Of a DNA stretch of 64,000 nucleotides, positions 1,100 to 20,394 are shown one piece after another. The notes beneath the pieces are model-generated. The model saw only the letters and a list, made by a program, of their open reading frames with translations, was not told where the DNA came from and did no database searches. The stretch is from Microvirga sp. (GTDB lineage Bacteria; Pseudomonadota; Alphaproteobacteria; Rhizobiales; Beijerinckiaceae): the NCBI GenBank assembly GCA_036263675.1, contig DATAGO010000053.1:48902-112901 (forward strand), written 5' to 3'. The position numbers were made by a program, and so were the translations under genes. Within the stretch, counting starts at the first letter, position 1, and every line of letters begins with the position of its first letter.

Positions 1100-1265
1100 T
1101 GCGGGCGAACCCCGCATCGGAACGGTCCCGCCGTGGCGAGATCTTCCCGGAGGACAGGGCCGAGCCTGTGACAAAAGCGGCCGCGGCTCGCCATGACTTT
1201 GCTGTTGAAGTATGGTTCAGTTCCATGCCAAGCCAGGTTTTGGGCTGGAACGTTCAGCAAACGCG

Positions 1266-3515: not shown

Positions 3516-3684
3516 GTCATGCCGAAGCACTCGGGCCCCGCTCCGGCCTCGCCGGCGCCCGCCCATGCTCGGATCGACGGCTCGGAGATCGGGCGCCGAC
3601 GGGAATTTTAAGGCCGCGTTAAGCTTAGGCCCGCCTGGAGCCGCGACGGAATCCGCCGTCGGCAGGTCGAAGCTCAACCGGTGC

Positions 3685-3713
3685 TTGACGCGCCCCCCTC
3701 CCCGACCTTTTAT
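3685..3713 (+). promoter_or_regulatory. possible sigma70-type promoter for the downstream outer-membrane protein gene
   Basis: TTGACG at 3685-3690, a 17-nt spacer, then TTTTAT at 3708-3713, about 40 nt upstream of ATG 3753. This is a motif match only. Confidence 0.3.
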
Positions 3714-3752
3714 GGCGGCGGCGGGGCGAGCGACCTCCGGCAGGGATTTGCA

Positions 3753-5132
3753 ATGCGACACTGGCTGACATCGCTGGCGGCGACGGCCTGCGTCTGCGCG
3801 GCGGCAGCCGTCGCGGCGCCGGCTTCGGCGCAGGCGCCCGGACCCGGCCAGGGCTTGAATGCCGTTCTTCAGGCCGCCGATCCGACGCTGCGGGCCGAAT
3901 ACGAAGCCCTCTTTCGCCGCATCCTCGCCAACCCGGCCGATCTCGACGTCAACTTCCGCTTCTCGGAGGTCGCCACCCAGATCGGCGACCTCGAGGCCGC
4001 GATCGGTGCGCTCGAGCGCATCGTGTTCTACAACCCGAACCTGCCGCGGGTGCGGCTCGAGCTCGGCATCCTGTATTTCCGCCTCGGCTCCTACGCGATG
4101 GCGCGAGAGTATTTCGAGAGCGCGATCGCCGGACCGGAGGTGCCGCCCGAGCTGACGAGCCGGGTGCGCGGCTTCCTCGCCGAGATCGACCGCCGGCTCA
4201 GCACCACGCAATGGTCCTTCTACGGCCAGACCGGTTTCCGCCACCAGACGAACGCGAGCGCCGGACCGTCGAGCCCGGTGGTGCGCTCCTTCGGAACGAC
4301 CGGGCTGCTCGACCGCCGCTTCGTCCGCCGGCCCGACTGGAACGCCTTCGCGCTCGGGTCGCTGCGCCACATCTACGACTTCGAGAACCAGCGCGGCGAC
4401 GTGTGGGAGACCAACGTCTCGACCTACAACGCGCGGCAGTTCCAGGTCAGGCGGCTCGACGTCAACCTGCTCGAGGTCCAGACCGGGCCGCGCTTCGCCC
4501 TCAACCCCGAGGAATGGCCCGGGGCCTATGTCCGCTCCTACTTCGTGGGTGGGGTGGTGGCGCTCGGCGGGTCCTATTATCTCGGCACCGCCGGCGCGGG
4601 CGTCGGGATCGGCACGTCCTTCGGCTCGCTCCTGGTCGAGCCCTTCGCGGAGTACCGCCGCCGCGACTTCGGCAATTCCCGGGACTACCCGACCGCGACG
4701 CAGCAGGAGGGCGACCTCTGGACGGCCGGCCTCGTCGCGGGAAGCCCGCTCGGCGGCCCCCTGCGCTGGCAGGCGCGCGCGGCCTATGTGGACAACGAGA
4801 CGCAGGAGCGTTTCCGCTTCTTCGGCTTCCGGCAGGCGAACGTCGACGTCGCGCTCCCGTTCGACTTCACCGGCCCCTGGGGCGACCGGCCCTGGACGCT
4901 CACGCCCTATGCGGGTTTCAGCTACACCGATTACGACGCCCCGAACCGGGCGGTCGACCCGCGGGTGAGCCGCGAGGACCGGGAGTGGCGCGTCGGCGCC
5001 GGCATCGATCTGCCGCTGTACCAGAACATCGGCTTCGGCGCGCAGATCACCTACAGCCGGACGGATTCCAACATCCGGAACTATCGGCTCGACAATCTGG
5101 CGATCGGCTTCGGCCCGACCTTGCGGTTCTGA
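3753..5132 (+). CDS. TPR-containing outer-membrane beta-barrel protein (Slam/DUF560-like architecture)
   Basis: Start at ATG 3753 gives the signal peptide MRHWLTSLAATACVCAAAAVAAPASA. The N-terminal part is TPR-like (LEAAIGALERIVFYNPNLPRVRLELGILYFRLGSYAMAREYFESA). It is followed by alternating hydrophobic beta-strand patterns and an OMP-type C-terminus, GPTLRF. Confidence 0.6.
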   Translation: MRHWLTSLAATACVCAAAAVAAPASAQAPGPGQGLNAVLQAADPTLRAEYEALFRRILANPADLDVNFRFSEVATQIGDLEAAIGALERIVFYNPNLPRVRLELGILYFRLGSYAMAREYFESAIAGPEVPPELTSRVRGFLAEIDRRLSTTQWSFYGQTGFRHQTNASAGPSSPVVRSFGTTGLLDRRFVRRPDWNAFALGSLRHIYDFENQRGDVWETNVSTYNARQFQVRRLDVNLLEVQTGPRFALNPEEWPGAYVRSYFVGGVVALGGSYYLGTAGAGVGIGTSFGSLLVEPFAEYRRRDFGNSRDYPTATQQEGDLWTAGLVAGSPLGGPLRWQARAAYVDNETQERFRFFGFRQANVDVALPFDFTGPWGDRPWTLTPYAGFSYTDYDAPNRAVDPRVSREDREWRVGAGIDLPLYQNIGFGAQITYSRTDSNIRNYRLDNLAIGFGPTLRF

Positions 5133-6457: not shown

Positions 6458-7522
6458 TCACCCGGACTCCGGCGGGTCTTCGGTCCCGTGTACGCCATCC
6501 GGCTCGAGGGTCCCGCATGGCGGTGTCGCCGCGAGAGCGGCGGCGATCGCGTGCCAGGCGGGCTTGCGCCGCAGGCGGCGGTCCAGGGGAAGCGGGCGCA
6601 CCGGGGCACCGTCTTCGCGAGGCCGAAATGCGGAGAGCCAGGTGCGCGCGTCGGCGAGGCCCCAGGTCGTCACCGCGAGCGTCGGACAGGCTTCGAGCAC
6701 GAGCCCTATGTGGCGGCGATAGGCGTCGGCCACCATGGCGTCGCGCCTGTCGCGGGGGCAGCGCCAGTCGGCGACATCCATCTCCGTGATCATGACGGAA
6801 AGCCCAAGCCCTGCGACCTCGCGCAGGAAGGCGGCCAGCGCCGGGTGGTCGCGCGGCTGGCTTCCCGCCTCGATGTGGGACTGCATCCCAAGGGCGTGGA
6901 TCGGGGTCCCGGCCGCCAGTTCCCGCTCGAGCAGGTCGAGCATCGCCCGCCGCTTGGCGTCGGCATCGGGCGAGTCGTATTCGAGCCCCATCTCGTTGAG
7001 GACGAGCACCGCGCGGGCGTCGGCCTCCGCGGCCGCCCGGAAGGCGGCGCCGACATAGCCCGGACCGAAGGCGTCGAGAAAGGGAGAGGCGCGCAGGCCG
7101 CCGCTGCGCCCGTGATCGAGATCGAGGGGCTCGTTGACCACGTCCCAGGACGCGATCCGGCCCGCATAGCGGCCGACGGCCGCGCCGAGGTGATCAAAGG
7201 CGGCCGCGGCGAACCGGTCTCGCGGAGCCCCGGACCAGGGGGGCGGCACCGATTCGTGCCACCACAGGGTATGGCCGTGCACGGCGAGGCCGTGGGCGCC
7301 CGCGAAGCCCACCAGCGCATCGGCGGGCCCGTAGCCCACGCGCTCGACCGCGTCCCACTTCATCTCGTATTCGGCGGAGATCAGGCTGCACTCGCGAAGG
7401 AGCGCCGCCCGGTAGGCCTCCGAATCGAGGTCGGCGGTCGAGACCGCCGCCCCGAACAGCAGGCCGCGCGTCCGGGCGAGGTCGCGAAGGCCGGGGCGGT
7501 CCTGGGGGTGCGGCTTTCTCAT
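6458..7522 (-). CDS. glycoside hydrolase family 10 (endo-1,4-beta-xylanase-like)
   Basis: GH10 catalytic signatures WDVVNEP (acid/base) and VMITEMDV (nucleophile), plus HGHTLWWH. No obvious signal peptide or Shine-Dalgarno sequence. Confidence 0.7.
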
Positions 7523-7593
7523 CGGAGGTCGTGATCTATGTAAGGGATGGGTCTCCCGGGAGAACCCGGCCCGGACACCCGCATCTCGACCCC

Positions 7594-9624
7594 ATGAAGA
7601 TCCGCAACATCCTCCTCGCCCTCATCGCCTTCCTGGGCGTCGCGCTGATCGCCACCGTCGCGCTCCAGATCCGTGGCGAGGTCAGGGATTACCGGGAGGC
7701 GCAGCGGCTTTCGGCCTCGAACGCGGCACGGGAGCAGCTTCTGCGGGCCTCCGCGGCCCTGGCCGACGAGCGCACCGAAACCTACGGGCACCTGCTCGAT
7801 CCGGTGCGCCGCCCCGGCCTGCCGCCGGGGGTCGAGGCCGCCCGAGGGCGGGTCGATGCCGCACGGGGCGCCGCCGAGGCGCTCATCCGCAAGGACACCG
7901 ACCGCCTGAGCCACGCGGGGTCGAGCCTCCAGACGCTCGCCCATGTCGACCGGGAACTGAAGGGCCTGCGCGCCCAGGCGAACGCCGCCCTCGCCGCGAC
8001 CGACGCCGCCGAGGGTCGACGGCTCGCGCCGCGCTGGTTTTCCGAGGTGACCCGGATCCTCGAAGAGGCCCAATCCCTGCGCCTGACCCTGCTGCAGCAG
8101 GAACGATCGCCGGATCCCGCGGCCCGCGCGGAGGCCTTGCTGCGCTACTATTCCGGCCTCCTCGCCGAGGCCGTCGCCCGCAATCACGCCCTGCTCACCC
8201 AGGCGCTCGCAGGCCGGGCCGGCCTCGGCGGCGCGGAGCTCGACGCCGCGAGCCGGAACGTCGGGCGGGCCCAGCTTGCCTGGGAGCTGATGAACGAGCA
8301 GCTCACCGCGCCCCTCGACCCGGGCGTCCGGGCAAGCCTGACCGCCGCGCGCGGGCAATACGCCACCGCGCTCAGCCCCTTGCAGGAGACGCTCCTGAGC
8401 TCCCTGCGGGGCCGCGCCTGGTCGTCCATCACCGCGGACCAATGGTCCGATGCCGCCCAGGCGGCGCTGCAGACGATCACGCGGTTGCAGGAGGATCTCC
8501 TGCGAAGCTCCCGCGAGCGCCTCGACGCCCAGGTGAGCCGGGCGCTGGGGTCGCTCGTGCTGTGGACGGCCCTCCTGCTCGCCGGGATCGCCGCCGTTTT
8601 CGCGAGCGGGCTCTTCGTCAGCCGACGGATCGTGTTCCCGCTCGAGGCGCTGCGGCGCGCCATGCTGCGCCTGGCCGAGAACGATCTTGCGACCCCCCTG
8701 CCGCGCTTCGCCCGGATGGACGAGATCGGCGAGATGAGCGACGCGCTGCGCGTCTTCAAGGCGAACGCGGTGCGGCGCCACCGCCTGCAGGAGGACAAGG
8801 AGACGCTGCACGCGCGCCTCACGGACACGTACCGCCAATTGCGGGCGGACCTCGACGCGGCCGCCACGATTCAGGCCGCGATGCTCCCCGCTCCCGCTTC
8901 GATCGCGGGCGTGCGGTACCGCGGCCTCTACCGTCCTTCCAGCGTGATCGCAGGCGACACCTACAACGTCCTCAAGCGCAACGACGGCCGCATCGGGTTC
9001 TTCCAGGTCGACGTCGCCGGGCATGGGGCGCCCGCGGCCCTCATCTCCGTGGCCTCCCACCATTCCCTGTCGCAGGCCCTCCTCAAGCAGGCGGACGGCA
9101 TGCCGATCGAGGCGGTGGCGGCGCAGATCAACGACGACTGGCCGGAGGATCTGCCCTATTTCACGATGGTTCTCGGCGAAATCGACTCTCGGACCGGGCG
9201 CGGCGCCATCGTGCAGGCCGGACACCCGCCCCCGCTCCTGATCGGGCGCGACGGCGCGGTGCGCGCCATCGGGGAAGGCGGGCTTCCGATCGGGATGTTC
9301 GCGGGGGCGCAGTTCGATCCGGTCGCGTTCGACGTCGCCGAGGGCGATCGCCTCGTGCTCTATTCCGACGGACTGGTCGAAGCCCACAGCCCGTCCGGGG
9401 AGATCTTCTCGGAGGAGCGCCTGCTCGAGCTGGTGCAGTCCCGGGCCGATGCGGCCACGGAGACGCTCCTCGACGCCATCGATTCGGCGGTGCGGATCTG
9501 GTCCGGCGCCGACACTCTCGAGGACGACCTGAGCGTTCTGGTGCTGGAGCGCCTGCCGAGGCCCGTGCGGGGTCCGGCACTGCGCGCAGACGCGTCACGG
9601 GATCGCGCAGATGCGGTGGGTTAG
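7594..9624 (+). CDS. HAMP domain-containing PP2C/SpoIIE serine phosphatase (RsbU-like)
   Basis: Start at ATG 7594 (MKIRNILLALIAFLGVALIATVAL). It has a helical periplasmic-type sensor, a second TM helix, a HAMP domain (PLEALRRAMLRLAENDLATPLP...EIGEMSDALRVFK) and a SpoIIE/PP2C core (AGDTYNV...FFQVDVAGHGAPAAL...VQAGHPPPLL...LVLYSDGLVEA...DDLSVLVLER). Confidence 0.8.
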   Translation: MKIRNILLALIAFLGVALIATVALQIRGEVRDYREAQRLSASNAAREQLLRASAALADERTETYGHLLDPVRRPGLPPGVEAARGRVDAARGAAEALIRKDTDRLSHAGSSLQTLAHVDRELKGLRAQANAALAATDAAEGRRLAPRWFSEVTRILEEAQSLRLTLLQQERSPDPAARAEALLRYYSGLLAEAVARNHALLTQALAGRAGLGGAELDAASRNVGRAQLAWELMNEQLTAPLDPGVRASLTAARGQYATALSPLQETLLSSLRGRAWSSITADQWSDAAQAALQTITRLQEDLLRSSRERLDAQVSRALGSLVLWTALLLAGIAAVFASGLFVSRRIVFPLEALRRAMLRLAENDLATPLPRFARMDEIGEMSDALRVFKANAVRRHRLQEDKETLHARLTDTYRQLRADLDAAATIQAAMLPAPASIAGVRYRGLYRPSSVIAGDTYNVLKRNDGRIGFFQVDVAGHGAPAALISVASHHSLSQALLKQADGMPIEAVAAQINDDWPEDLPYFTMVLGEIDSRTGRGAIVQAGHPPPLLIGRDGAVRAIGEGGLPIGMFAGAQFDPVAFDVAEGDRLVLYSDGLVEAHSPSGEIFSEERLLELVQSRADAATETLLDAIDSAVRIWSGADTLEDDLSVLVLERLPRPVRGPALRADASRDRADAVG

Positions 9625-9691
9625 GCATGGTGGACAGACCGGAGCGGCGCCGCTCGCGGCCGGGCCCGGATAGGGAAGAGGAGAGATCCCG

Positions 9692-10027
9692 ATGCTCAGC
9701 GAAGAGCAGCGCAACGACGTTCTGATCGTGCGCGTCGACGAGAAACGCGTCGATGCCAGCAGGGCGCCGCTGTTCAAGGACGAGATGACGCGCCGCATCG
9801 AGGCCGGGCACACCCGCCTCGTCCTCGATCTCAGCGGCGTCGAGTTCGTGGACAGCTCGGGTCTCGGCGCGATCGTGGCCTGCCTGAAACGGCTCGGGCC
9901 GCGGGGCGACCTCGCGATCGCGGGCGCGAAGGGTCCCGTGAGCCGCCTGTTCACGCTCACCCGCATGGACAAGGTCTTTCGCCTGCACGACACGGTCGAG
10001 GCCGCGGTCGCGCAGATGTCGTCATGA
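9692..10027 (+). CDS. STAS domain anti-sigma-factor antagonist (RsbV/SpoIIAA-like)
   Basis: 111 aa with GAGGAG upstream. The STAS signature LVLDLSGVEFVDSSGLGAIVACLKRL contains the phosphorylatable Ser in DSSGLG. Confidence 0.85.
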   Translation: MLSEEQRNDVLIVRVDEKRVDASRAPLFKDEMTRRIEAGHTRLVLDLSGVEFVDSSGLGAIVACLKRLGPRGDLAIAGAKGPVSRLFTLTRMDKVFRLHDTVEAAVAQMSS

Positions 10028-10122
10028 GGGACGGCCCCGCGTCTGCGCCTCCCGATCGGCAGGATCGGGCGACGCTTCGGCGGCAGCGCGGGCCCGCAGG
10101 GTCCTGAAGGGAGTCCGGAACG

Positions 10123-10563
10123 ATGTCGGTCGGGATGCGGCTTCATATCGACAGCGATTTCGACAAGGTCGCGCTGCTCGCCCGGGCCGTCCGGGCGCTG
10201 TGCGCCGAACTGCTCGACGCGGAAGCCGCGGATGCGGTCGAGATCAGCCTCGTCGAGGCGGTCAACAACGTGATCGAGCACGGCTACGAGGGAAAACCCG
10301 GACGCGACGTCGGCGTCGAGGTGTCGGTTCATCCCGACCGGATCGTGATCGAAGTCGTCGACCAGGCGGCCCCGATGAAATCCGGTGCCCTGAGCGAAGC
10401 CGCATCGGAGATCGTCTTCGACGAAACCAACATCGACAGCCTGCCGGAGGGCGGGATGGGGCTCGCCCTCATCCGCATGAGCATGGACGAAGTGGAGTAC
10501 TGCGCCGCACCGGGCGAGAACCGGCTCCGTATGGTGAAGCGGATCCCCGCCCCCGCGGGCTGA
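10123..10563 (+). CDS. anti-sigma regulatory factor, serine/threonine kinase (RsbW/SpoIIAB-like, HATPase_c)
   Basis: 146 aa with GAAGGGAG upstream. N-box EAVNNVIEHG and G-box EGGMGLALIRMSMDEV. Confidence 0.8.
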   Translation: MSVGMRLHIDSDFDKVALLARAVRALCAELLDAEAADAVEISLVEAVNNVIEHGYEGKPGRDVGVEVSVHPDRIVIEVVDQAAPMKSGALSEAASEIVFDETNIDSLPEGGMGLALIRMSMDEVEYCAAPGENRLRMVKRIPAPAG

Positions 10564-10586
10564 GGCTTGCCCGGCGAGGCCCCGAT

Positions 10587-10700
10587 CCGGGACGCAATCC
10601 CCGGCGGGGTTGAGGGACAGGAGCCCGGGACGCGATCTCCGGCGGCGTGCAGGGTCAGGAGCCCGGGACGCGATCCCCGGCGGTGTGCAGGGTCAGGAGC
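10587..10700. repeat. three tandem copies of a 38-bp unit (CCGGGACGCGATCCCCGGCGGTGTGCAGGGTCAGGAGC)
   Basis: Copies at 10587-10624, 10625-10662 and 10663-10700 differ at only a few positions. They are contiguous with no spacers. The last copy supplies the final codons and stop (10693-10695) of the minus-strand gene. Confidence 0.9.
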
Positions 10701-11154
10701 CCGGCAGGCGGCCGATGCGCTCCTGCAGGTCCGGAAAGGCGGCCGCGACGACGCCGAGCGCGGCGGCCAGTCCCGTGGGCGGTGCCGCGCGGTCGCTCTC
10801 GATGGCGGCCAGCACGGTCTCGACCCGCGGACGCGTCTCGCCCGCCGCAACCACCCCGAGTTGGACCGCCCCCGCGAGCGCGGTCAGGAGCGCCGCCCGC
10901 GCCTCCGGCGCGGCCGGGGCGGCGGTGTAGGCCTCCTCGGCCCGGCGCAGGGCCGCGCGGGCGCGATCGGCCACGGGCTCGGGCACCGCCGCCGGAGCGG
11001 GACGGGACCCGACCAGGGCCGCGTCGATGCGGCCGCGGATGCGCTCCTCCGTGTCGAGCGCCTCGAGGTAGATGATCACGCCCGTCGAGATCGCCAGCGC
11101 CAGGATGAAGACGATCTGGCCGCGCGCCTCGAGCAGGCCCTCTCTGAAGATCAA
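10693..11154 (-). CDS. hypothetical membrane-anchored protein
   Basis: 153 aa with strong GC3 bias. One N-terminal TM helix (IVFILALAISTGVIIYL) is followed by an Ala-rich helical region. I recognise no family. Confidence 0.5.
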   Translation of the reverse strand: MIFREGLLEARGQIVFILALAISTGVIIYLEALDTEERIRGRIDAALVGSRPAPAAVPEPVADRARAALRRAEEAYTAAPAAPEARAALLTALAGAVQLGVVAAGETRPRVETVLAAIESDRAAPPTGLAAALGVVAAAFPDLQERIGRLPGS

Positions 11155-11374
11155 CGGATTCTCCCTGGAACGGGCGCCGGATCGGGATCCGTCCGGAGCG
11201 CGACGCCGACGTCGCCCTCCTCGCCTCGGCGGCCCGAGGCTAGCGAATGGGCAACAATGGCCGAAAACTTACGTCAGCCGGTCGCCGTGGCAACCCTGGG
11301 CGGCTTCCGTCGCGGCATATCGGGCTGTTAGCGTCGGGATTCTCGCCTCCGCTCCAGATTCGAGACGCGTCACG

Positions 11375-14300
11375 ATGGATTTCAAACGGCCTGCCTTCGG
11401 CCGTCGGCTCGCCGGCTTGCTGCTGCCCCTCGCTCTCAATCTGGTGCCGCTCGCCGCCGCGGCACAATCCGTGGACGAAACCGTTTCTCAGGCGCGCGCG
11501 GCCGCCAACGCCAGCAACAATCAGGAGGCGGTGCGCCTGTTCGAGCAGGCGATCCGCGCCGCGCCCGAGCGCCGGGGCGAGTTCCTGCTGGAGCTCGCCG
11601 ATCAGCTCAGCTTTGCGGGCCGGCCCGGCGAGGCGGTGCCCCTCTATCGCGAGCGCCTCTCCGATGCCGCCTTGCCCGCGGACGCGCGCCGGCGCGCGGA
11701 GCGGGGCCTCGCCTTCGCGCTGCTCTGGAGCAGCCAGTTCGAGGACGCGATACCGGCCTGGCAGGCGATCGCGCAGAGCGCGCCCGGCGATGCGGAAGCC
11801 CGCAAGGCGCTCGTCGATGCGACGGTCGGGGCGGCGCGGGCTGCCGCGAGCCGTGGCGCCAACCGGGAGGCTGCGGGCTTTTTCGAGCGCGCCCTCGGCC
11901 TCGATCCCGCACGCCAGCTCGAGCTCGGCCGCGAATATGCCGACCAGCTCGCCTTCGCGGGCGAGCCCGCCCGGGCGGTGCCGCTCCATCGCGCGCGCCT
12001 TGCGCGCACGGATCTCGCCCCGGAGGAGCGGCAGCGGACCGAGCGGAGCCTCGCCTTCGCGCTCCTGTGGAGCAGCAGCTTCCAGGATGCCGTCCGCGCG
12101 TGGGAGCCCATCCTGCGCGCCGCCCCGGATGACGAGGAGGCCCGCAAGGCGCTCGCCGACGCCCTCGTCGGCTCCGCGCGCCAGGCGGCCGAGCAGCGCC
12201 GGAACGGCGATGCCGCAGCCCTCTTCCGCCGGGCCATCGAGACGGCGCCGGCCCGCCGCCAGGAACTCCTGCCCGAACTCGCCGACCAGACCGCCTATGC
12301 CGGCCGGCCCGGCGAGGCCGTGCCGCTCTATCAGGAAACCCTGCGCCAGGGCGACCGCTCGCCGGCCCAGAGGGCGCCCATCCAGCGCAACCTCGCCTTC
12401 GCGCTCCTGTGGGCCAGCCGGTTCCAGGAGGCGGTCGGCGCCTGGGACCAGATCTTCCGCGCCAGCCCGCGCGACGAGGAGGCCCGCAAGGCCCTGAGCG
12501 ACGCCCTCGCGGGCCTCGCCCGCCAGACCGCGGAGCGCCGCCGCAACGCCGACGCCGCAACGCTGTTCCGCCGCGCCGTCGAGACCCTGCCGGCCCGCCG
12601 CGGGGAACTTCTGCCCGAGCTGGCCGACCAGACCGCCTATTCCGGACGGCCCGCGGATGCGGTGGCGCTCTACCAGGAGGGCCTGCGGCAGGCGGACCGG
12701 CCCGAGGCGGAGCGGCAGAGGCTCCAGCGGGGCCTGGCCTTCGCCCTGCTGTGGAGCGGCCGCTTCCGCGAGGCGGTGCCGGCGCTCGAGGGCGTCCTCG
12801 CCCGCAGCCCCGGCGACGAGGATGCCAGGAAGGCTCTCGCCGACGCGCGCTCCGGCACGGCCCGTTCGCCCGCCGACCGCTCGGAGCCTCAGGGCGCGGA
12901 GCCGCCTCGCGGCGCTTCGCCCGAGGCGGCTCCGGCCGCGGCCGCGCCCCCGGCTGCCCCTGCTCCGGCCGCGCCTGCGAGCCCGGCCGACCGGGCGATC
13001 GCCGAAGCCCGGGCTGCGGCGGGACGGGGCGCCAACAAGGAGGCCGCTGCCCTCTTCGCCCGCTCGGCCGAACTCGATCCCGCCAGGCGCCGCGACGTCC
13101 TGCGCGAATGGGCCGATCAGGTCGCGTTCTCGGGCGACCCGGCGCGCGCCGTCCCGCTCTACCGCGAGGCCCTGCGCCGGCCGGACCTCGCGGCCGAGGA
13201 CCGTCAGAAGACCAACCGCGCCCTCTCGTTCGCGCTCCTGTGGAGCAGCCAATGGGACGAGGCCATCGGGGCCTGGACCGAGATCGTGCGCGGCGAGCCG
13301 CGCGATCAGGAGGCCCGCAAGGCGCTCTCCGACGCCCTCGTGGGCGCCGCCCGCGCGGCGGCGGAGCGCAGCCGCAACGGGGACGCCGCCAACCTGTTCC
13401 GCCGGGCGATCGACACCCTCCCCGGCCGACGGCAGGAGCTTCTGCCGGAATTCGCCGACCAGCTCGCCTTTTCGGGCCAGCCCCGCGCCGCCGTGGTGCT
13501 CTATCGCGAGGGCCTGAGGGTCGGAAACCGGTCGCCGGCCGAGCGCCTGCGCCTGCGGCGCGGTCTCGCCTTCGCGCTCCTGTGGAGCAACCAGTGGAGC
13601 GAGGCGATCGAAGCCTGGCGCGCGCTCGTGCGCGAGAACCCGCGCGACCAGGAGGCCCGCAAGGCCTATGCCGACGCCCTCGTGGGCGGCGCCCGGGAGG
13701 CCGCGGGCGAGAGCCGCAACGCCCAGTCCGCCGCGCTCTTCGCGCGGGCCATCGCGGTGGCGCCCGAGCGCCGCCGCGAGCTGCTGCGCGAATACGCCGA
13801 CCAGGTGCTCTATTCCGGCCAGCCGCTCGCCGCGATCCCGCTCTACCAGGAGGTTCTGCAGCGCGGCGACCTGACCGCGCAGGAGCTCCGCCATGCCCGG
13901 ATCGGCTTGGCCCGCGCCTATTCCTGGAGCAACCAGCCCGATCTCGGCCTGCCCTACTACACGGCGATCCTGCGGGCGGACCCGGCCGATTTCGAGGCGC
14001 TCGTCGGACGGGGCCAGGCCCTGAACGCGGTCGCGGCGCATCGGGCCGCGCTCGCCGATTTCGAAGCCGCGCTGGCGCTGAGGCCAGGCAATGCCGACGC
14101 GCTCCGCGGCGCCGGACGGGCGGAGACGTCGCTCGGCCTGCACCGGGTCGCGATCGGGCGCGTCGCGCCGCTCGTCGCCGGGGGAGACCGGAACCCCGAG
14201 ACCCTGCGCATCGTGGCGGACGCCCGCCGCGCCATGGGCCGCCCGGACCTCGCCGAGGACGCCGCGCTCGCGATCCTCGGCATCAAGCCCGACGACGAGG

Positions 14301-16168
14301 GGGCGCAGCGCCTCCTCGCGGACCTGCATCGCGAGCGGCGGCCCCTCGCCCAGGTCGAAGCCCAGCAGATCCGCCGCTCGGACGACCTGCGGATCAACGG
14401 CGTCCTCGCATTCTCGGAATTCACCTTCGACCGCGGCCTCGTGAAGCTCGCGCCGCAATTCCGGCACCTGAGCCACCGCGGCGGCTATTTTCCGGACGTG
14501 GACGTCTACAGCTTCGGCCTGCGCGGGCGTCAGCGCTTCAACGACTGGCTCGAGGTCAAGACGGACTTCTTCGTCAACTCGGAGGAGGAGCCGGCCGACA
14601 AGGACGTGTCCTTCACCCACGACACGACGCTGAGCTTCATCCCGAGCGACGTATGGCGGCTCAACCTCCAGGCCGCGCGGCGCTATCCCGACGAGAACCC
14701 GATCTCGATCGTCAACGACGTGTTCCAGAACGACTTCGGCGGCTCGGTCGAGTTCACGCCGAGCTACGACCTGAAGGTGACGGGCCGCGGCCTCTTCAGC
14801 ACCTATACGGACGGGAACGAGCGCGCCTGGGGCCAGCTCGAGATGGCGCGCCGCGTGGCGATCAAGCCCGACATCCTGCTCGGCGCGCGCCTCACGGCCT
14901 TCGACTTCGAGAAGGTGTTCGACAACGGCTACTGGAACCCGGATCGCTACCAGTCCGCCGAGGCGACGTTCCAGTCGTACGGCCAGATCACCGACAGGCT
15001 CTCCTACGACGTGCAGCTCGCCGGCGGCTGGGCCTGGACCCAGCCCGGCACGGACGGGGCGGTCTATGCCGGCACCGCGCGCCTGAACTACCAGTTCCAC
15101 CCCGACGCCACGGTCTCGCTCTTCGCCAACCACCTCACGTCGCATGTGCGCTCCGGCGAGACCGGCGGCGTGGCGGACGAGGGCAACGACCGGCCCTTCC
15201 GGCGCAACGTGCTCGGGGCCCAGCTCCAGGTTCGCCTCGGCACGCCCGCCGGCGTCTTCGCGCCGGATCCGAAGCCCGCGGCGGCCCCCGCGGCTCTCCC
15301 GGTCTTCACCTGGACGGGCTTCTACACCGGGGTGAACTTCGGCTGGGGGTTCGACGAGGACGAGGTCCGCCGCGGGCGCCTCGAGACGGCGCGGCCGGGC
15401 GGGGGCGCCTTCGGGGTCCGGCCGGCGGTCCCCGGCACCACGTTCTTCACGCCCGCCAGGATCAACAACGACGACAGCGGCCTCACCGGCGGCATCCAGG
15501 CCGGGTACAGCGTCCAGCACGGGCGGTTCGTGGCCGGGATCGAGGCGGACCTCCAGGCGATCGACCTGGGCGACGTGCCGGGCCGCAGGCTCCCTGGCGG
15601 CTCGTTCTTTGCCGCGCCGCGGGTCAGGGCCGGCAACCCGACCGTCGGGATCCAGCCGCCGATCTTCGGCGACCCCAACGTGTTCTTCCGCAGCAACAAT
15701 CCCCTCAACGACGAGCACGAGATCGACGCCTTCGCGACGCTGCGGGGCCGCCTCGGCATCGCCTTCGACCGGACGCTCGTCTACGCCACCGGCGGCCTCG
15801 CCTGGAAGACCGACGGATCGGACGACGCCGGCCGCGCGGGCCGGCCCGTCGCCGGCTTCTACTCGCCGCTCGCGCCGGGCGCCGCGGCGCGCGGCCGGCA
15901 GGTCCTGAGCCGCGCCGGGACCGGATCCGACGACGAGGTCTTCGGCTTCGCGGCGGGCGGCGGCATCGAATACGCCTTCACGAACACGATCATCGGCCGT
16001 CTCGAGGGCCTCTATGCCGCGTTCGCCGACGAGGGCGGCGGGCGGGGCGAGCGGATCGTGGGCGTGACCAACACCGGGCGTGCCGTCACCTATTCCGCGC
16101 GGGTCGACGAATCCATCCGGTTCGGCCTCATCCGGGGCGGTCTCAACTTCCGCTTCGACACCCGCTAG
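11375..16168 (+). CDS. giant outer-membrane protein: signal peptide, about 7 long TPR-like repeats, a PgaA/BcsC-style beta-barrel, then a C-terminal Omp25/RopB-type (OMP_b-brl) beta-barrel
   Basis: Start at ATG 11375 (MDFKRPAFGRRLAGLLLPLALNLVPLAAAAQS). The signature (R)xLAFALLWSxxF/W recurs six times, with one degenerate copy (GLARAYSWSNQ), and EARKAL recurs at about 113-aa spacing. A Pro/Ala linker lies at about 12866-13000. Amphipathic strands run from about 14350. The second linker is GTPAGVFAPDPKPAAAPAALP. The last domain runs from VFTWTGFYTGVNFGWGF to IRGGLNFRF. Confidence 0.8.
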   Translation: MDFKRPAFGRRLAGLLLPLALNLVPLAAAAQSVDETVSQARAAANASNNQEAVRLFEQAIRAAPERRGEFLLELADQLSFAGRPGEAVPLYRERLSDAALPADARRRAERGLAFALLWSSQFEDAIPAWQAIAQSAPGDAEARKALVDATVGAARAAASRGANREAAGFFERALGLDPARQLELGREYADQLAFAGEPARAVPLHRARLARTDLAPEERQRTERSLAFALLWSSSFQDAVRAWEPILRAAPDDEEARKALADALVGSARQAAEQRRNGDAAALFRRAIETAPARRQELLPELADQTAYAGRPGEAVPLYQETLRQGDRSPAQRAPIQRNLAFALLWASRFQEAVGAWDQIFRASPRDEEARKALSDALAGLARQTAERRRNADAATLFRRAVETLPARRGELLPELADQTAYSGRPADAVALYQEGLRQADRPEAERQRLQRGLAFALLWSGRFREAVPALEGVLARSPGDEDARKALADARSGTARSPADRSEPQGAEPPRGASPEAAPAAAAPPAAPAPAAPASPADRAIAEARAAAGRGANKEAAALFARSAELDPARRRDVLREWADQVAFSGDPARAVPLYREALRRPDLAAEDRQKTNRALSFALLWSSQWDEAIGAWTEIVRGEPRDQEARKALSDALVGAARAAAERSRNGDAANLFRRAIDTLPGRRQELLPEFADQLAFSGQPRAAVVLYREGLRVGNRSPAERLRLRRGLAFALLWSNQWSEAIEAWRALVRENPRDQEARKAYADALVGGAREAAGESRNAQSAALFARAIAVAPERRRELLREYADQVLYSGQPLAAIPLYQEVLQRGDLTAQELRHARIGLARAYSWSNQPDLGLPYYTAILRADPADFEALVGRGQALNAVAAHRAALADFEAALALRPGNADALRGAGRAETSLGLHRVAIGRVAPLVAGGDRNPETLRIVADARRAMGRPDLAEDAALAILGIKPDDEGAQRLLADLHRERRPLAQVEAQQIRRSDDLRINGVLAFSEFTFDRGLVKLAPQFRHLSHRGGYFPDVDVYSFGLRGRQRFNDWLEVKTDFFVNSEEEPADKDVSFTHDTTLSFIPSDVWRLNLQAARRYPDENPISIVNDVFQNDFGGSVEFTPSYDLKVTGRGLFSTYTDGNERAWGQLEMARRVAIKPDILLGARLTAFDFEKVFDNGYWNPDRYQSAEATFQSYGQITDRLSYDVQLAGGWAWTQPGTDGAVYAGTARLNYQFHPDATVSLFANHLTSHVRSGETGGVADEGNDRPFRRNVLGAQLQVRLGTPAGVFAPDPKPAAAPAALPVFTWTGFYTGVNFGWGFDEDEVRRGRLETARPGGGAFGVRPAVPGTTFFTPARINNDDSGLTGGIQAGYSVQHGRFVAGIEADLQAIDLGDVPGRRLPGGSFFAAPRVRAGNPTVGIQPPIFGDPNVFFRSNNPLNDEHEIDAFATLRGRLGIAFDRTLVYATGGLAWKTDGSDDAGRAGRPVAGFYSPLAPGAAARGRQVLSRAGTGSDDEVFGFAAGGGIEYAFTNTIIGRLEGLYAAFADEGGGRGERIVGVTNTGRAVTYSARVDESIRFGLIRGGLNFRFDTR

Positions 16169-16323
16169 GCCCCGTCCCGCCCGGACGGACCCCGGCCGGG
16201 AGCGATGCGGCCGCGGTCCCGGGGCGGCAGGCCGCTATTTCCAATCCGGTCCCTGTCACATAAGTATCGCCGAAAGCCGCTAGCGCGGCAGGACGTTCGA
16301 AGCCCGGGAGGTTGGTTCTCGCC

Positions 16324-17301
16324 ATGAAGCGCCTGTTCGTCTCCGCATTCCTCGCCCTGCTGCCCGCGGCGGTCTCCGCCCAGGAGGTGTCCGGCAAGCT
16401 CGTTCTCTACACGAGCCAGCCCAACACCGACGCCCAGCAGACCCTCGACGCCTTCAAGGCCAAGCACCCGAAGGTCGACGTCTCCTTCGTGCGCGACGGG
16501 ACCCCCCGCATCCTCGCCAAGCTGCGCGCGGAGTTCGAGGCCGGCCAGCCCCAGGCGGATCTCCTCCTCATCGCCGACAGCGTCACCATGGAGGGCCTGA
16601 AGAAGGAGGGCCGCCTCCTGGCCCATGAGGGCGCGGACGTCTCGGCCTATCCGGCCGGCACGCACGATCCCCAGAAGCACTGGTTCTCGACCAAGCTCAT
16701 CACGACGGGCATCGTCTACAACACCAAGGCCCCGATGAAGCCGGCCTCCTGGACCGACCTCCTCAAGCCGGAGGCCAAGGGTCAGGTCACGATGCCGAGC
16801 CCGCTCAGCTCCGGCGCGGCCCTGATCCACGCGGCGACCCTGACCGGCACCCTGCCGGGCGGCTGGAAGTACTACGAGGGCCTCAAGGACAACGCCGCGA
16901 CCGCGGGCGGCGGCAACGGCGACATCCTGAAGAGCGTCGCGGGCGGCGAGAAGCTCTACGGCGTCATCGTCGACTTCATGCCGATCCGCGAGAAGGCGAA
17001 GGGCGCTCCCGTGGAGTTCGTGTTCCCGAAGGAGGGCGTCTCCGCCGTGACCGAGCCGGTCGCGATCCTGAAAGCCACCAAGAACCCCGAAGCCGCCAAG
17101 GCCTTCGTGGACTTCGTGCTCTCAAAGGAGGGCCAGGAGCTCGCGCTCAAGCAGGGCTACATCGCCGCCCACCCGGCCGTCGCCCTCCCCGCAGGCTACC
17201 CCGCCCGGGAGAACATCAAGGTCATGGGCTTCGATGCCGCCAAGGCGCTCGCGGACGAGACCAAGAACAAGACCACCTTCGCCGACATCTTCGGCCAGTA
17301 G
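16324..17301 (+). CDS. ABC transporter periplasmic solute-binding protein, family 1 (Fe3+/thiamine type)
   Basis: Start at ATG 16324 (MKRLFVSAFLALLPAAVSAQE, a signal peptide). KLVLYTSQPNTDAQQTLDAFKAKHPKVDVSFVRDG is typical of FbpA/AfuA-like binding proteins. Confidence 0.8.
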   Translation: MKRLFVSAFLALLPAAVSAQEVSGKLVLYTSQPNTDAQQTLDAFKAKHPKVDVSFVRDGTPRILAKLRAEFEAGQPQADLLLIADSVTMEGLKKEGRLLAHEGADVSAYPAGTHDPQKHWFSTKLITTGIVYNTKAPMKPASWTDLLKPEAKGQVTMPSPLSSGAALIHAATLTGTLPGGWKYYEGLKDNAATAGGGNGDILKSVAGGEKLYGVIVDFMPIREKAKGAPVEFVFPKEGVSAVTEPVAILKATKNPEAAKAFVDFVLSKEGQELALKQGYIAAHPAVALPAGYPARENIKVMGFDAAKALADETKNKTTFADIFGQ

Positions 17302-17314
17302 CCCCCTCGCGCCC

Positions 17315-17344
17315 GGGCCCTCCCGCCGACCCGCGGGAGGGCCC
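17315..17344 (+). promoter_or_regulatory. intercistronic stem-loop between the binding-protein and permease genes
   Basis: Perfect 12-bp stem GGGCCCTCCCGC / GCGGGAGGGCCC with a 6-nt loop, 14 nt after the stop codon and followed by TTGCGC. There is no real U-tract, so it looks more like an mRNA-stabilising or attenuating hairpin than a full terminator. Confidence 0.45.
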
Positions 17345-17361
17345 TTGCGCATCCCAGGCCC

Positions 17362-19068
17362 ATGAGATCCCGCACGGAATCCCTGCTCGAGCGGGGAGGC
17401 GCAGGCCTCCTCGCTTTCGTCGTCCTGGCGGTCCTCGTCTTCGACCTCCTCCCGGCCGGGCGCCTCCTCCTCGCGGCCGTGGCGCCCGGCGGCACCTTCG
17501 CGCCCGAGCGCGCGCTCGAGGTCGTGTCGAGCCGCGGCGCCGTGCGCGCCACGGTCGCGACGCTCGAGACCGCGTTCTGGTCGGGCCTGCTCGCCCTGGG
17601 GCTCGGCACCGTCATGGCGCTGATCCTCGGCACCTCGGACGCGCGCGGACGGCGCCCGGCCTCGTTCCTGTTCGTGCTATCGACGATGATCTCGCCCCAG
17701 GTGGTGGCGCTCGCCTTCCTGACGCTCGCCGGACCCGCCTCGCCGCTCCTGAATTCCTTAGGGCTCGCGCCGCCGCCCGGGAGCGCCAACCCCTTCATGG
17801 GCCGCGGCGGCATCATCCTGGTGCTCGGCCTCCACCACGCGCCGCTCGTCTTCGTGATCGTCACCGCGGGCCTGAAGCGCATCCCGCGCTCGCTCGTCGA
17901 GGCCGCGCGGGTCGACGGCACGCCGCCGCGCCGGATCACCACCGGCATGGTCCTGCCGCTGCTGCGACCGCACCTCGTCTCGGCCGGCCTCCTCGCCTTC
18001 GTGGCGGGCGCGGGCAATTTCGGCATCCCGGCGCTCCTCGGCCTGCCCGTGAACTACCTCACCCTCGCGACCCTGATCTACCGCAGGCTCTCCAGCTTCG
18101 GGCCGCAGGTGATCGGCGACGTCGCGGCGCTCGGCGTTCTGGTCGCGGTGGTCGCGGGCGCCTGCGTGCTCATGAGCGGCCTCGTCCTGCGGCGGGAGGC
18201 GGTGCGCACCGAGGACGAGGCGCCGCTCGAGCCCTACGCGATGCTCGGGCCGCTGCGCGGGGCCGCAACCGTCTTCGTGTGGGCGGTGCTCGGACTCGCG
18301 CTCGCGCTGCCGATGCTCTCGCTCCTGACTGCCGCCCTCGTCCCGTCCTACGGCGTGCCGCTCACCCCCTCGACCGCGACGCTCGCGAACTTCGTCGAGG
18401 TGCTCGTGCGCCAGCAGGTGACCACGCGGGCCTTCACGAATTCGCTGCTCTATGCCGGCGGCTCCGCCCTCGTGCTCGCCGCCTTCACGATCCCCCTCGC
18501 CTACATGCTGGTGCGGCGCGCGGGGCGGAGCGCGCAGGTCATCGCGGCGCTCGTCGAGGTGCCCTACGTCCTGCCCGGCGTCGTGCTCGCCATCGCCTGC
18601 ATCCTGCTCTTCCTGCGGCCCCTTCCTCTCGTCGGGGTGTCGCTCTACGCGACGCCCTGGATCATTGTCTTCGCCTATCTCGCCCGCTTCCTCCCGGTCG
18701 CCCTCAAGCCGACGCTCGCCGCCATGGCGCAGGTGGACGTTGCGCAGGAGGAAGCGGCGGCGCTCGATGGCGCGCGCCTCTGGCGGCGGCTGCGCACCAT
18801 CGTGGCGCCGTCGCTCCTCCCCGCTGCCGTCGCGGGCGGACTCCTCGCCTTTCTGCTGGCGTTCAACGAGCTCACGGTCTCGGCGCTCCTGTGGTCCGCC
18901 GGCACCGAGACGATCGGGGTCGTGCTCTACAGCCTGGAGGAGGCCGGGCTCGCGAGCCCGGCCGCCGCGATCGCGGTCGCGACCGTCGCGGTGATCACGC
19001 TCACGATGCTCGCCCTCGACCTGATGGGCTCGCGCCTGCCGCCGGGAGTGCTGCCCTGGCGGCCCTGA
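17362..19068 (+). CDS. ABC transporter permease, fused two-domain type (FbpB-like)
   Basis: 568 aa with about 12 TM segments. It has two EAA-loop regions, LVEAARVDGTPPRRI and QEEAAALDGARLWRRL. Confidence 0.85.
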   Translation: MRSRTESLLERGGAGLLAFVVLAVLVFDLLPAGRLLLAAVAPGGTFAPERALEVVSSRGAVRATVATLETAFWSGLLALGLGTVMALILGTSDARGRRPASFLFVLSTMISPQVVALAFLTLAGPASPLLNSLGLAPPPGSANPFMGRGGIILVLGLHHAPLVFVIVTAGLKRIPRSLVEAARVDGTPPRRITTGMVLPLLRPHLVSAGLLAFVAGAGNFGIPALLGLPVNYLTLATLIYRRLSSFGPQVIGDVAALGVLVAVVAGACVLMSGLVLRREAVRTEDEAPLEPYAMLGPLRGAATVFVWAVLGLALALPMLSLLTAALVPSYGVPLTPSTATLANFVEVLVRQQVTTRAFTNSLLYAGGSALVLAAFTIPLAYMLVRRAGRSAQVIAALVEVPYVLPGVVLAIACILLFLRPLPLVGVSLYATPWIIVFAYLARFLPVALKPTLAAMAQVDVAQEEAAALDGARLWRRLRTIVAPSLLPAAVAGGLLAFLLAFNELTVSALLWSAGTETIGVVLYSLEEAGLASPAAAIAVATVAVITLTMLALDLMGSRLPPGVLPWRP

Positions 19069-19101: not shown

Positions 19102-20394
19102 TCAGCCGAGTCCCAGGAGGCCAGCCGACAGCGCGTCGGCGAGGTCGCGGTACTCCTCGAGCCAGAGCACGGCGGCCATCGCCGCCACATGCAGCACGAC
19201 GAGGCCCGCATAGGCGCCGGCGACGGCGAGCACCCCCTGCCCGTCGAGCGGCGCGGCCGCGGCCGACGGTTTCGGCATGGCGCTCCAGGCGAGCGCGCCG
19301 AGGACGAAGAACACGAGCAGCACCTTGGCATCGAGCCAGAGCGCGAGAGCCGCGCCGGCGAGGACCAGACCGCCCGAGATCGCGAACCAGGCCCGGTCGC
19401 CGAGGGGCCGGATCAGCGCCTGCGTCACGCGTCCGCCGTCGAGGGGCGGCACGGGCAGGAGGTTGAACAGGTTCGCGGCGAGCAGCACCAGGGCGGCAGC
19501 CGCGAACCAGGCGGATGCGCCGAGGCAATAGAGCCCGAGGCAGGCGAGTCCCGGCACGAACCCGAACACGGGCCCCATCAGCATGATCGTCGCCGCCTCG
19601 CCGTCCGAGCCGAAGCCCCGGCTGCCGACCGCGACTCCGCCGAAGAACGGCACGAGATACATGCGCGCGGCCGCATGCCCCTGCCGGCGCATCGCCCAGA
19701 CATGCCCGTATTCGTGGACCACGAGGCCCGCCAGCAGAGCGAGGCCGAGCGAGATGCCGAATTCCCAGCAGAGCCACGCGATCGCGCTCGCGGCGAGCGC
19801 GGCCTGGACCCGGGTCGGCCCGGAGCGCCGCGCCCGCCCGCCCGCACCGGCCGGTCCGGCGGAATCGGCGCCGTGCTGCGCAAGCTCGCCGCGGGCGATG
19901 AGGCCGAAGAACTGATTGAGCAAGGGATAGCGCAGGCGAACCCAGAAGCCGTTCAGGAGCGCGCCGCGCTCGACGGCATATTCCGAGGTGAGGACCGTGC
20001 GGCCGTCCTCCTCGGAGAGGCGGTAACGGGCGACGATGAGGTCGCCGTACGCGCTCCGGCCGCGCCAGAGATAGCGGTTGAGACCCTCGAGGGCGACGAG
20101 CGGCTCAGACCGGACGATCCGGTAGCGGATGAGGTCTCCGGTCTCGTAGGCGATCGCCATGTCGCCCTCTGCCTCGTCGACCCACTCGATCGAGCGGACG
20201 GCGGGGATCCAGATCCGCTTTCCCGGCCGGATGTCGATCAGGTCCCAGACCCGTTCCAGCGGCGCATCGAAGGTCAGGCGGCCGCGGTAGAACTGGCGCG
20301 GGCGGTTCACGTAGACCCCGTAGCCGGCCACGGCGAGGGCCGCGGCGACGAGGAGCATATCGGTGACGGGCAGCATGGCGTCGGCCTCCGGCAT
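19102..20394 (-). CDS. site-2 protease family (peptidase M50) membrane metalloprotease with an N-terminal TM helix and an SRPBCC/START-like domain
   Basis: HEYGH (HExxH) lies in a TM segment and NLFNLLPVPPLDGG is the second M50 motif. The N-terminal 150 aa (TFDAPLERVWDLIDI...YRLSEEDGRTVLTSEYAVE) look like a polyketide-cyclase/SRPBCC fold. Confidence 0.7.
   Translation of the reverse strand: MPEADAMLPVTDMLLVAAALAVAGYGVYVNRPRQFYRGRLTFDAPLERVWDLIDIRPGKRIWIPAVRSIEWVDEAEGDMAIAYETGDLIRYRIVRSEPLVALEGLNRYLWRGRSAYGDLIVARYRLSEEDGRTVLTSEYAVERGALLNGFWVRLRYPLLNQFFGLIARGELAQHGADSAGPAGAGGRARRSGPTRVQAALAASAIAWLCWEFGISLGLALLAGLVVHEYGHVWAMRRQGHAAARMYLVPFFGGVAVGSRGFGSDGEAATIMLMGPVFGFVPGLACLGLYCLGASAWFAAAALVLLAANLFNLLPVPPLDGGRVTQALIRPLGDRAWFAISGGLVLAGAALALWLDAKVLLVFFVLGALAWSAMPKPSAAAAPLDGQGVLAVAGAYAGLVVLHVAAMAAVLWLEEYRDLADALSAGLLGLG

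Follow-up and report, generated by a model that had tools for sequence, protein, structure and literature searches.

The gene at positions 11375-16168 on the plus strand of a 64,000-nucleotide stretch of Microvirga sp. DNA (contig DATAGO010000053.1 of assembly GCA_036263675.1; the whole stretch is termed the window below) raises the question of whether one polypeptide can genuinely join a tetratricopeptide repeat (TPR) solenoid to two successive outer-membrane β-barrels and, if so, how such a chain arose and what its second barrel does. An earlier reading made from the nucleotide letters (the sequence-only reading) had proposed a chain with a TPR solenoid, a PgaA-like barrel and a complete Omp25/Omp31-type barrel. 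Homologues and structure prediction bear this proposal out, and the sequence strings quoted in its support were all recovered where it had placed them. Given the observations set out below, it is probable that a real, lineage-specific, in-frame fusion generated this three-part outer-membrane protein, and that it works in the manner proposed below.

The open reading frame (ORF) encodes 1597 amino acids (aa), with an ATG at 11375 and a stop codon at 16166-16168. The longest open frame begins at 11072; a signal-peptide-like N-terminus lies right after the ATG at 11375 (MDFKRPAFGRRLAGLLLPLALNLVPLAAAA, followed by QS), and the public gene call uses this start too. Coding is supported by a GC content of 0.91 at third positions across the ORF, and the 1492-aa ORF on the opposite strand was set aside as a high-GC artefact. 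An identical 1597-aa gene call is deposited as HEX2554974.1 ('MAG TPA: tetratricopeptide repeat protein [Microvirga sp.]'), and JGI labels the gene (metagenome 3300037833, contig Ga0401341_00067 of 277 kb) as 'TPR repeat protein/opacity protein-like surface antigen'. The layout of the encoded protein is as follows.

11375-11464 (+), signal peptide, residues 1-30, with a charged n-region, a hydrophobic core, an AxA motif and predicted cleavage between AAA and QS
11474-12841 (+), TPR modules 1-4, residues 34-147, 148-261, 262-375 and 376-489, 114 aa each
12842-12988 (+), Pro/Ala-rich low-complexity spacer, residues 490-538, which breaks the 114-aa periodicity
12989-14344 (+), TPR modules 5-7 (residues 539-880) and terminal canonical TPRs (residues 881-990), leading into barrel 1
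14345-15238 (+), barrel 1, predicted 16-strand PgaA/PelB/BcsC type, residues 991-1288, last strand FRRNVLGAQLQVRL
15239-15301 (+), inter-barrel linker GTPAGVFAPDPKPAAAPAALP, residues 1289-1309, 21 aa, Pro/Ala
15302-16168 (+), barrel 2, predicted 8-strand Omp25/Omp31 type (OMP_b-brl), with the stop codon, residues 1310-1597, four long surface loops

As the source is a metagenome-assembled contig, an assembly or sequencing artefact, such as an overlooked stop codon, a frameshift or two genes joined chimerically, has to be weighed as an explanation of the fused frame. Over 10375-17168, junction included, the window and the Logan assembly of SRR12688413 agree at every position (100% identity), and two assemblers thus yield the identical sequence. 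Diverged versions of the same junction are seen in two other samples: an ENA contig (L001), which runs collinearly to window 6528-19061 at a DNA identity of ~80-82%, carries barrel 1, linker and barrel 2 in one frame, its protein (P0001) being 81% identical to that of the window, whereas an NCBI protein from a metagenome-assembled genome (MAG), P0002, which is partial and spans 83% of the query, is in frame at 88% identity. A stop or start between the barrels, which the sequence-only reading had named as the observation that would speak against it, is present in none of the three diverged junctions (window, L001 and P0002), and a decayed remnant of the junction was recovered from a fourth sample (L013, see below). 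Furthermore, Nei-Gojobori ratios of nonsynonymous to synonymous substitution rates (dN/dS) between the window and L001 amount to 0.25 (barrel 1), 0.21 (linker) and 0.34 (barrel 2, 286 codons), indicating codon-level selection across the junction; by this measure, both lineages keep the fusion under purifying selection. An artefact as the source of the fusion is therefore effectively excluded.

The TPR region is recognized by Pfam profiles at scores far above their thresholds (TPR_14, 85 bits; TPR_19, 61 bits), with a further match to TPR_5 and matches of TPR_1, TPR_2 and TPR_16 to residues 730-906, and its repeats are also visible as off-diagonal matches in the DNA. Five of the seven 114-aa modules can be aligned without gaps at pairwise identities of 47-61%; the other two (262-375 and 767-880), which lie outside that alignment, were placed by their 114-aa spacing alone. 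The copy number of the module appears to differ strongly among close relatives. Orthologues are called at lengths between 529 and 1597 aa, the lower value coming from L003, whose gene is cut by frameshifts.

The two predicted barrels

An AlphaFold2 (AF2) model of residues 981-1597, built from 34 aligned sequences, shows 16 strands, mostly with a predicted local distance difference test (pLDDT) value above 85, followed by a disordered linker and a second strand-rich domain. In Foldseek comparisons, barrel 1 superposes on the barrel of PgaA (PDB: 4Y25) with a target-normalised template-modelling (TM) score of 0.79 and a root-mean-square deviation (rmsd) of 3.4 Å, and on PelB (9h80_M) and BcsC (6tzk) with TM scores of 0.60 and 0.50, respectively. 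TonB-dependent receptors, which took ranks 1-3 and most of the top 50 for the two-barrel model, were discarded as long-barrel noise (rmsd above 22 Å, TM ~0.2). A 16-strand barrel placed after a periplasmic TPR domain, the arrangement which defines the TPR-porin structural class, is thus what the predicted structure and the TPR Pfam matches jointly show. At the sequence level, the PgaA_barrel profile (PF21197) scores 18.4 bits on isolated barrel 1 (E=1.3e-3), below its cut-off of 27, and matches 21 of the 34 members of set A1 at E<=1e-3, which is nearly all members that carry barrel 1, whereas the PgaA equivalog TIGR03939, with its cut-off at 366.65 bits, gives 52.4.

Barrel 2 opens with VFTWTGFYTGVNFGWGF (residues 1310-1326) and ends in IRGGLNFRF (1586-1594), of which GLNFRF resembles a C-terminal β-signal. 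Modelled alone from 95 sequences, it yields a pLDDT of 84.3 and a predicted TM score (pTM) of 0.73, with eight long strands that are linked by very short turns on the periplasmic side and by four long loops at the surface. Its closest structural matches are the OmpA transmembrane domain (TM 0.59-0.66), Ail (0.61) and NspA (0.59), with OmpW and OmpX also recovered. It is 52-57% identical over 93% of the domain to free-standing 'outer membrane immunogenic proteins' of 325-336 aa (E=1e-69 to 1e-79), and this homology, together with the 8-strand fold, places it in the Omp25-Omp31 family. The OMP_b-brl profile (PF13505) scores 26.1-27.8 bits on barrel 2, just short of the gathering threshold of 28.7, a marginal miss ascribed to the long loop insertions, and matches 66 of 95 close barrel-2 homologues. 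Sequence searches of PDB chains with the two-barrel region and with the barrel-2 profile gave nothing useful (an enolase at E=0.58, designed Kelch-like repeats and weak OmpA matches). Of the families for which the sequence-only reading had proposed profile searches, those of the TPR class were found far over threshold, whereas PgaA_barrel and OMP_b-brl fell just under theirs; its expectation that the C-terminal ~290 aa form an independent barrel agrees with the structure prediction. For the barrels the profile scores give hints, and their identification rests on homologues and predicted structure.

On the whole, the chain is predicted to contain 16 + 8 strands that close independently as two barrels. 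An alternative under which the C-terminal 600 residues form one barrel of ~24 strands draws on the engineered tandem OmpX with a 2-residue linker, which merges into a bigger barrel (Arnold et al., as discussed in PMC8346858). Here, in contrast, the two regions are set apart by a 21-residue Pro-rich linker, barrel 1 fits onto the closed 16-strand barrel of PgaA and occurs alone in orthologues, and barrel 2 is predicted to close with 8 strands by itself and is free-standing in relatives, which makes a merged barrel extremely unlikely. The two halves also give non-overlapping, full-length matches on either side of a clear linker, each matching single-barrel proteins end to end, and the strand counts together with the PgaA superposition indicate separate barrels in the prediction. 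As both strand counts are even, all four barrel ends would face the periplasm, with which a 21-aa periplasmic linker fits topologically.

The junction and its phyletic pattern

All unfused orthologues examined end in ...LR[VI]RW followed by a stop codon. In the fused genes this stop is replaced by GGC, and the downstream codons align with free-standing omp genes from codon ~13 onward. After the join the window reads GGC ACG CCC GCC GGC GTC TTC GCG CCG GAT CCG, which aligns with GGC CTC ACG GCC GGT GCG GTG GCG / GCT GAT CTG of the free-standing gene, the slash marking the signal-peptide cleavage site. The free-standing protein across this site is G-L-T-A-G-A-M-A / A-D-L-P-M-R-A-A-P-P-P-P...V-P-V-F-T-W-T-G, and that of the window is G-T-P-A-G-V-F-A-P-D-P-K-P-A-A-A-P...A-L-P-V-F-T-W-T-G. 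By this alignment the join falls inside the signal-peptide coding region of the omp gene, whose first 12 codons (MKKILLSTVAFA) were lost in the fusion, and the linker corresponds to the tail of the old signal peptide plus the Pro/Ala periplasmic tether segment that precedes the first strand. The sequence-only reading was therefore right in seeing a gene fusion, but the join is not at the mature N-terminus of a porin-family protein, where it had placed it; it lies ~8 codons upstream. The junction reads LQVRLGTPAGVFAPDPKPAAAPAALPVFTWTG in the window, LQVRLGTPLGVFAPDPKPAPA-SALPAFTWTG in P0002 and LQVRWGNPAGVFAPDPRPAQA-ASLPVFSWTG in P0001. The linker is kept in both of the latter, and FAPDP is common to all three, whereas the terminal Trp of barrel 1 is Leu in the window and in P0002 and still Trp in P0001.

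Among 94 aligned free-standing homologues, the mature +1 position is Ala in 90 and +2 is Asp in 89. The fused protein has Pro at +1 and retains Asp at +2, such that the former A/AD reads A-P-D and is internal. Accordingly, the hallmark of the Omp25-Omp31 family by which a signal peptide of its own is followed by an N-terminal Ala-Asp is absent from barrel 2. In Hyphomicrobiales, the N-terminal alanyl-aspartyl motif is described as the point of covalent attachment of β-barrels to peptidoglycan (PMC12729407, citing Godessart et al. 2021). Since this anchor needs a free N-terminal Ala-Asp and the motif here is an internal Pro-Asp, we infer that the fused barrel 2 cannot be tethered in the manner of free Rhizobiales β-barrels, and the loss of the anchor would be a concrete cost of the fusion.

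The descent of the linker from a signal-peptide c-region, with V-F-A still standing before the old cleavage site, and its predicted disorder are both compatible with cleavage in the linker after export, which would release an ordinary TPR-porin and an ordinary small barrel from one gene. We regard this as highly unlikely, as the deletion of 12 codons removed the hydrophobic core of the former signal peptide, the +1 residue is Pro, which blocks cleavage by signal peptidase I, and no protease site is evident.

In an exhaustive HMMER scan of 1.84 billion representative proteins, which gave 4434 hits, the P0001 cluster is the only one among the matches listed that spans both barrels; the others cover either query residues 1-297 or ~298-606. 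Orthologues that end at window residue 1287 are found in L002 (GCA_016849945.1), L003, Microvirga terrae, M. arabica and the MAG L016. A scan of genome contigs with the two-barrel query confirmed no relative. A metagenome scan recovered L013 (JAESFH010000159.1, equivalent to JGI Ga0401338_00151). The orthologue there matches residues 1-1406 at 76% identity and retains barrel 1 and the linker, with the reading frame ending 40 residues further. Here, 4366-4620 (the minus strand of L017) holds a barrel-2 remnant with at least 5 frameshifting indels and in-frame stops, and homology is over at about window 15500. The presence of this decayed barrel implies that the fusion is older than the split of L013 and that barrel 2 was lost there later. 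Taken together, the comparison of these sequences shows a single origin of the fusion, later than the divergence from the L002/L003 lineage; as to how fused and split arrangements are distributed among relatives, a matter which the sequence-only reading had singled out, the fusion is confined to a narrow clade, and the other orthologues examined are unfused.

The close relatives hence provide a clean natural series of unfused (L002, L003, cultured Microvirga), fused (the window, L001, P0002) and decayed (L013) states, which the free-standing homologues of barrel 2 complement. The series indicates a route of origin in which an in-frame join in a signal-peptide region turns the signal tail and tether into an inter-barrel linker.

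The decay in L013 bears on the alternative that the fusion is selectively neutral baggage, in which barrel 2 folds, adds nothing, persists because misfolded extensions are harmful, and is heading for loss. This lineage lost barrel 2 by indels and deletion, yet kept the porin and its neighbouring glycosyltransferase family 2 (GT2) gene; further, dN/dS is higher for barrel 2 than for barrel 1, the fused clade is very narrow, and lineage-specific multi-barrel proteins are described as having high turnover (Solan et al., PMC8346858). On the other side, the dN/dS of barrel 2 (0.34 over 286 codons) lies well under 1, the two lineages available at full length (the window and L001) have barrel 2 intact and P0002 has it in frame, at identities of 81-88%, and FAPDP is kept in all three linkers. 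Neutrality of this kind is, on balance, unlikely but deserves real weight, and 'accessory anchor of small effect' and 'neutral passenger' are the leading options for the role of barrel 2 itself.

Several leads on the rearrangement that made the fusion were followed, none of which recovered the event. Had a simple inversion made the join, a stump of the omp signal peptide (MKKxLL / AxAADLP) might have stayed behind, but none turned up in any of the six reading frames of the window or of L001. The closest free-standing homologue of barrel 2 is P0046 (L007 7001-7996, Ga0401341_00065), which is 56% identical, has a signal peptide and Ala-Asp, and comes from the same metagenome; it may be a paralogue in the same genome as the fused gene, but the GC contents differ (68% vs 72%). 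Both P0046 and another free-standing homologue, P0048, lie in unrelated gene neighbourhoods. An RTX/M10_C gene follows the free-standing omp of L007 and, together with a small GT2, also follows the remnant of L013; the two genes are 37% identical in the repeat region, which is too weak for a shared ancestry of the flanks to be claimed. The window contains a second TPR and barrel protein at 3681-5129(+), of 483 aa, which pairs N-terminal TPR_9/TPR_16 with a C-terminal OMP_b-brl match (28.8 bits); it lies directly downstream of a CHASE2-adenylate/guanylate cyclase gene (1212-3512(+)), and the pair is kept in L002, where a FecR-domain protein is next. It shows no sequence relation to barrel 2 and is thus ruled out as the donor.

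Downstream, the ATP-binding cassette (ABC) importer at 16322-19068 (binding protein 16312-17301, permease 17362-19068) is collinear with L001, inverted relative to L002 and L003, and absent downstream in L013. The region 3' of the porin gene has thus been rearranged repeatedly and looks like a hotspot of such events. No omp remnant that would link the importer inversion to the fusion stands beside the importer in L002 or L003. A gene with Peptidase_M50 and Polyketide_cyc2 domains at 19102-20394(-) is absent from the L001 counterpart, where the permease lies almost directly before a DUF1345 gene.

Locus context and putative export role

Upstream of the porin gene the window carries the following features.

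6461-7522 (-), glycoside hydrolase of family 10 (GH10; Glyco_hydro_10, 220 bits)
7531-10563 (+), partner-switching module: HAMP-SpoIIE phosphatase 7531-9624, STAS 9692-10027, RsbW-like kinase 10123-10563
10693-11154 (-), conserved hypothetical gene, 153 aa; a GT2 lies between it and the porin in L017, L016 and cultured Microvirga

The GH10 gene, whose product as called shows no obvious signal peptide, adjoins the porin locus in L001-L004, L012, L016 and L017, and the partner-switching module is beside the porin in every locus examined save L002, where GH10 is present and the module is not. L012 and L017 are arranged in the order GAF, GH10, HAMP-SpoIIE phosphatase, STAS, RsbW-like kinase, hypothetical gene, (PIG-L, second STAS,) GT2 and TPR-porin. 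L004 and L016 share this order from GH10 on, GAF being outside the L004 stretch and across the porin in L016. The GT2 of these relatives is ~615 aa long, scores 224 bits against TIGR03030 (CelA) and is labelled cellulose synthase (UDP-forming) by JGI; in cultured Microvirga, the space from the hypothetical gene to the porin additionally houses a second STAS gene and one of the PIG-L deacetylase family. The interval that holds GT2 is 4846-7801 in L004, 5857-8725 in L012 and 8001-9848 in L017, and its counterpart in the window is the intergenic 11155-11374. A scan for promoters and terminators over 10600-16400 gave nothing above shuffled expectation.

The sequence-only reading had named an RsbUVW-like module and an ABC importer as neighbours. 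Both are present, but the RsbU/V/W module and GH10 are conserved partners across the genus rather than incidental ones. The conservation of these two elements suggests post-translational control of a polysaccharide system, and the layout of the orthologous loci is what would be expected of a synthase-dependent exopolysaccharide system with a TPR-porin as its outer-membrane exit. On both the nature of the polymer and the function of the partner switch, this layout permits inferences. A Microvirga-wide polysaccharide locus coupled to a partner-switching module is thereby documented; to our knowledge, it has no earlier characterization.

Neither the window nor L001 or L003 has the GT2, the PIG-L gene or the second STAS gene in the stretch from the hypothetical gene to the porin, and in L002 the porin comes straight after GH10. 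The synthase machinery that is expected of the TPR-porin class is absent from the window and present in the orthologous loci L004, L012, L016 and L017. That no exopolysaccharide synthase lies nearby, as had been remarked, holds for the whole window, but by comparison with Microvirga terrae, M. arabica, L016 and L017, all with a CelA-like GT2 beside the porin, this is a derived state. Comparison of two lineages without GT2 still reveals purifying selection on barrel 1 and the last TPRs; the porin is hence probably in use, either served by a synthase encoded at another site of the genome or in an altered role.

In the proposed scheme, the N-terminal signal peptide would route the chain through Sec, and the TPR superhelix would remain in the periplasm as a scaffold or guide. 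The β-barrel assembly machinery (BAM) would fold the 16-strand PgaA-type barrel as the exit pore for a β-glycan made by the cellulose-synthase-like GT2 that is found beside the porin in unfused orthologues and that, in this genome, may be encoded elsewhere or lost. The 8-strand barrel would then fold next to the pore, most likely as an accessory membrane anchor or lateral contact rather than a channel.

Several observations weigh against this scheme. The mutual placement of the barrels in the two-barrel model is tentative (pTM 0.55), and neither barrel alone attains a curated Pfam or TIGRFAM cut-off. The TPR part of L001 contains frameshifts, which are attributed to long-read assembly errors because the adjoining L001 genes are fragmented too; it is also possible that the L001 gene is a pseudogene. 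The loss of barrel 2 in L013 makes it dispensable in at least one lineage, and its contribution could be small or nil. Finally, no glycosyltransferase, GT2, PIG-L or acyltransferase was found in the 64-kb window, and the export role here rests on orthology and continued purifying selection.

A change of job might also be envisaged, in which the two-barrel protein is no longer an exporter and serves as a repurposed envelope device still wired to RsbU/V/W. Across three lineages, barrel 2 is intact where the adjacent GT2 was deleted (the window and L001) and pseudogenised in the fused lineage that keeps GT2 (L013/L017). If true, the two barrels would serve to hold a TPR platform of great length in the outer membrane; we consider this reading improbable, and an exit pore with an accessory second barrel is retained as the preferred interpretation.

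Comparison with known systems

The protein resembles the TPR-porins PgaA, PelB and BcsC (PDB: 4Y25, 9H80, 6TZK) in its signal peptide, long periplasmic TPR superhelix and C-terminal 16-strand barrel, and the orthologous loci resemble those systems in carrying a processive-type GT2, a PIG-L deacetylase-family gene and a glycoside hydrolase beside the porin. It differs in falling below the curated sequence cut-offs and in that the partner synthase of its orthologues is CelA-like rather than PgaC-like. Further, its locus is tied to an RsbU/V/W-type partner-switching module, with no synthase in the window, and whereas none of the solved proteins has a second barrel, this one has a barrel appended. 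Barrel 2, in turn, shares with Omp25/Omp31/RopB-type barrels the FTWTGFY first strand, the GGxxxGY, EAD, RGRLG and YATGG motifs and the C-terminal NF[RK]F signal, but it lacks a signal peptide of its own and a free N-terminal Ala-Asp, and its loops are far longer than those of classical Omp25.

Two barrels in one chain had been thought unusual for BAM substrates; they are in fact uncommon yet form a documented class, with 12,643 proteins in 34 architectures, 27 of which include an 8-strand barrel (Solan et al., PNAS 2021, PMC8346858). As described there, the linkers have a median of 22 +/- 13 residues, and the architectures, mostly lineage-specific and of high turnover, include a 22-8 family mostly from Rhizobiales, the 8-26 PagP-LptD and the 12-12 YjbH/GfcD. 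The present protein is a new example within this class rather than a new principle, sharing with it full-length matches to two barrel families, a ~20-residue linker, an 8-strand barrel, a recent lineage-specific origin, a narrow range and turnover. The mode by which BAM inserts multi-barrel proteins, and the need for a C-terminal signal on each barrel, are presented as open questions in the same source; with the terminal Trp of barrel 1 now Leu in two of the three fused versions, this protein offers a natural test case for the handling of an internal β-signal. It is set apart from the described members by its architecture, the combination of a polysaccharide TPR-porin with an Omp25-type barrel being unmentioned in the main text of PMC8346858, and by the fact that the unfused, fused and decayed states, along with the exact junction, can all be recovered.

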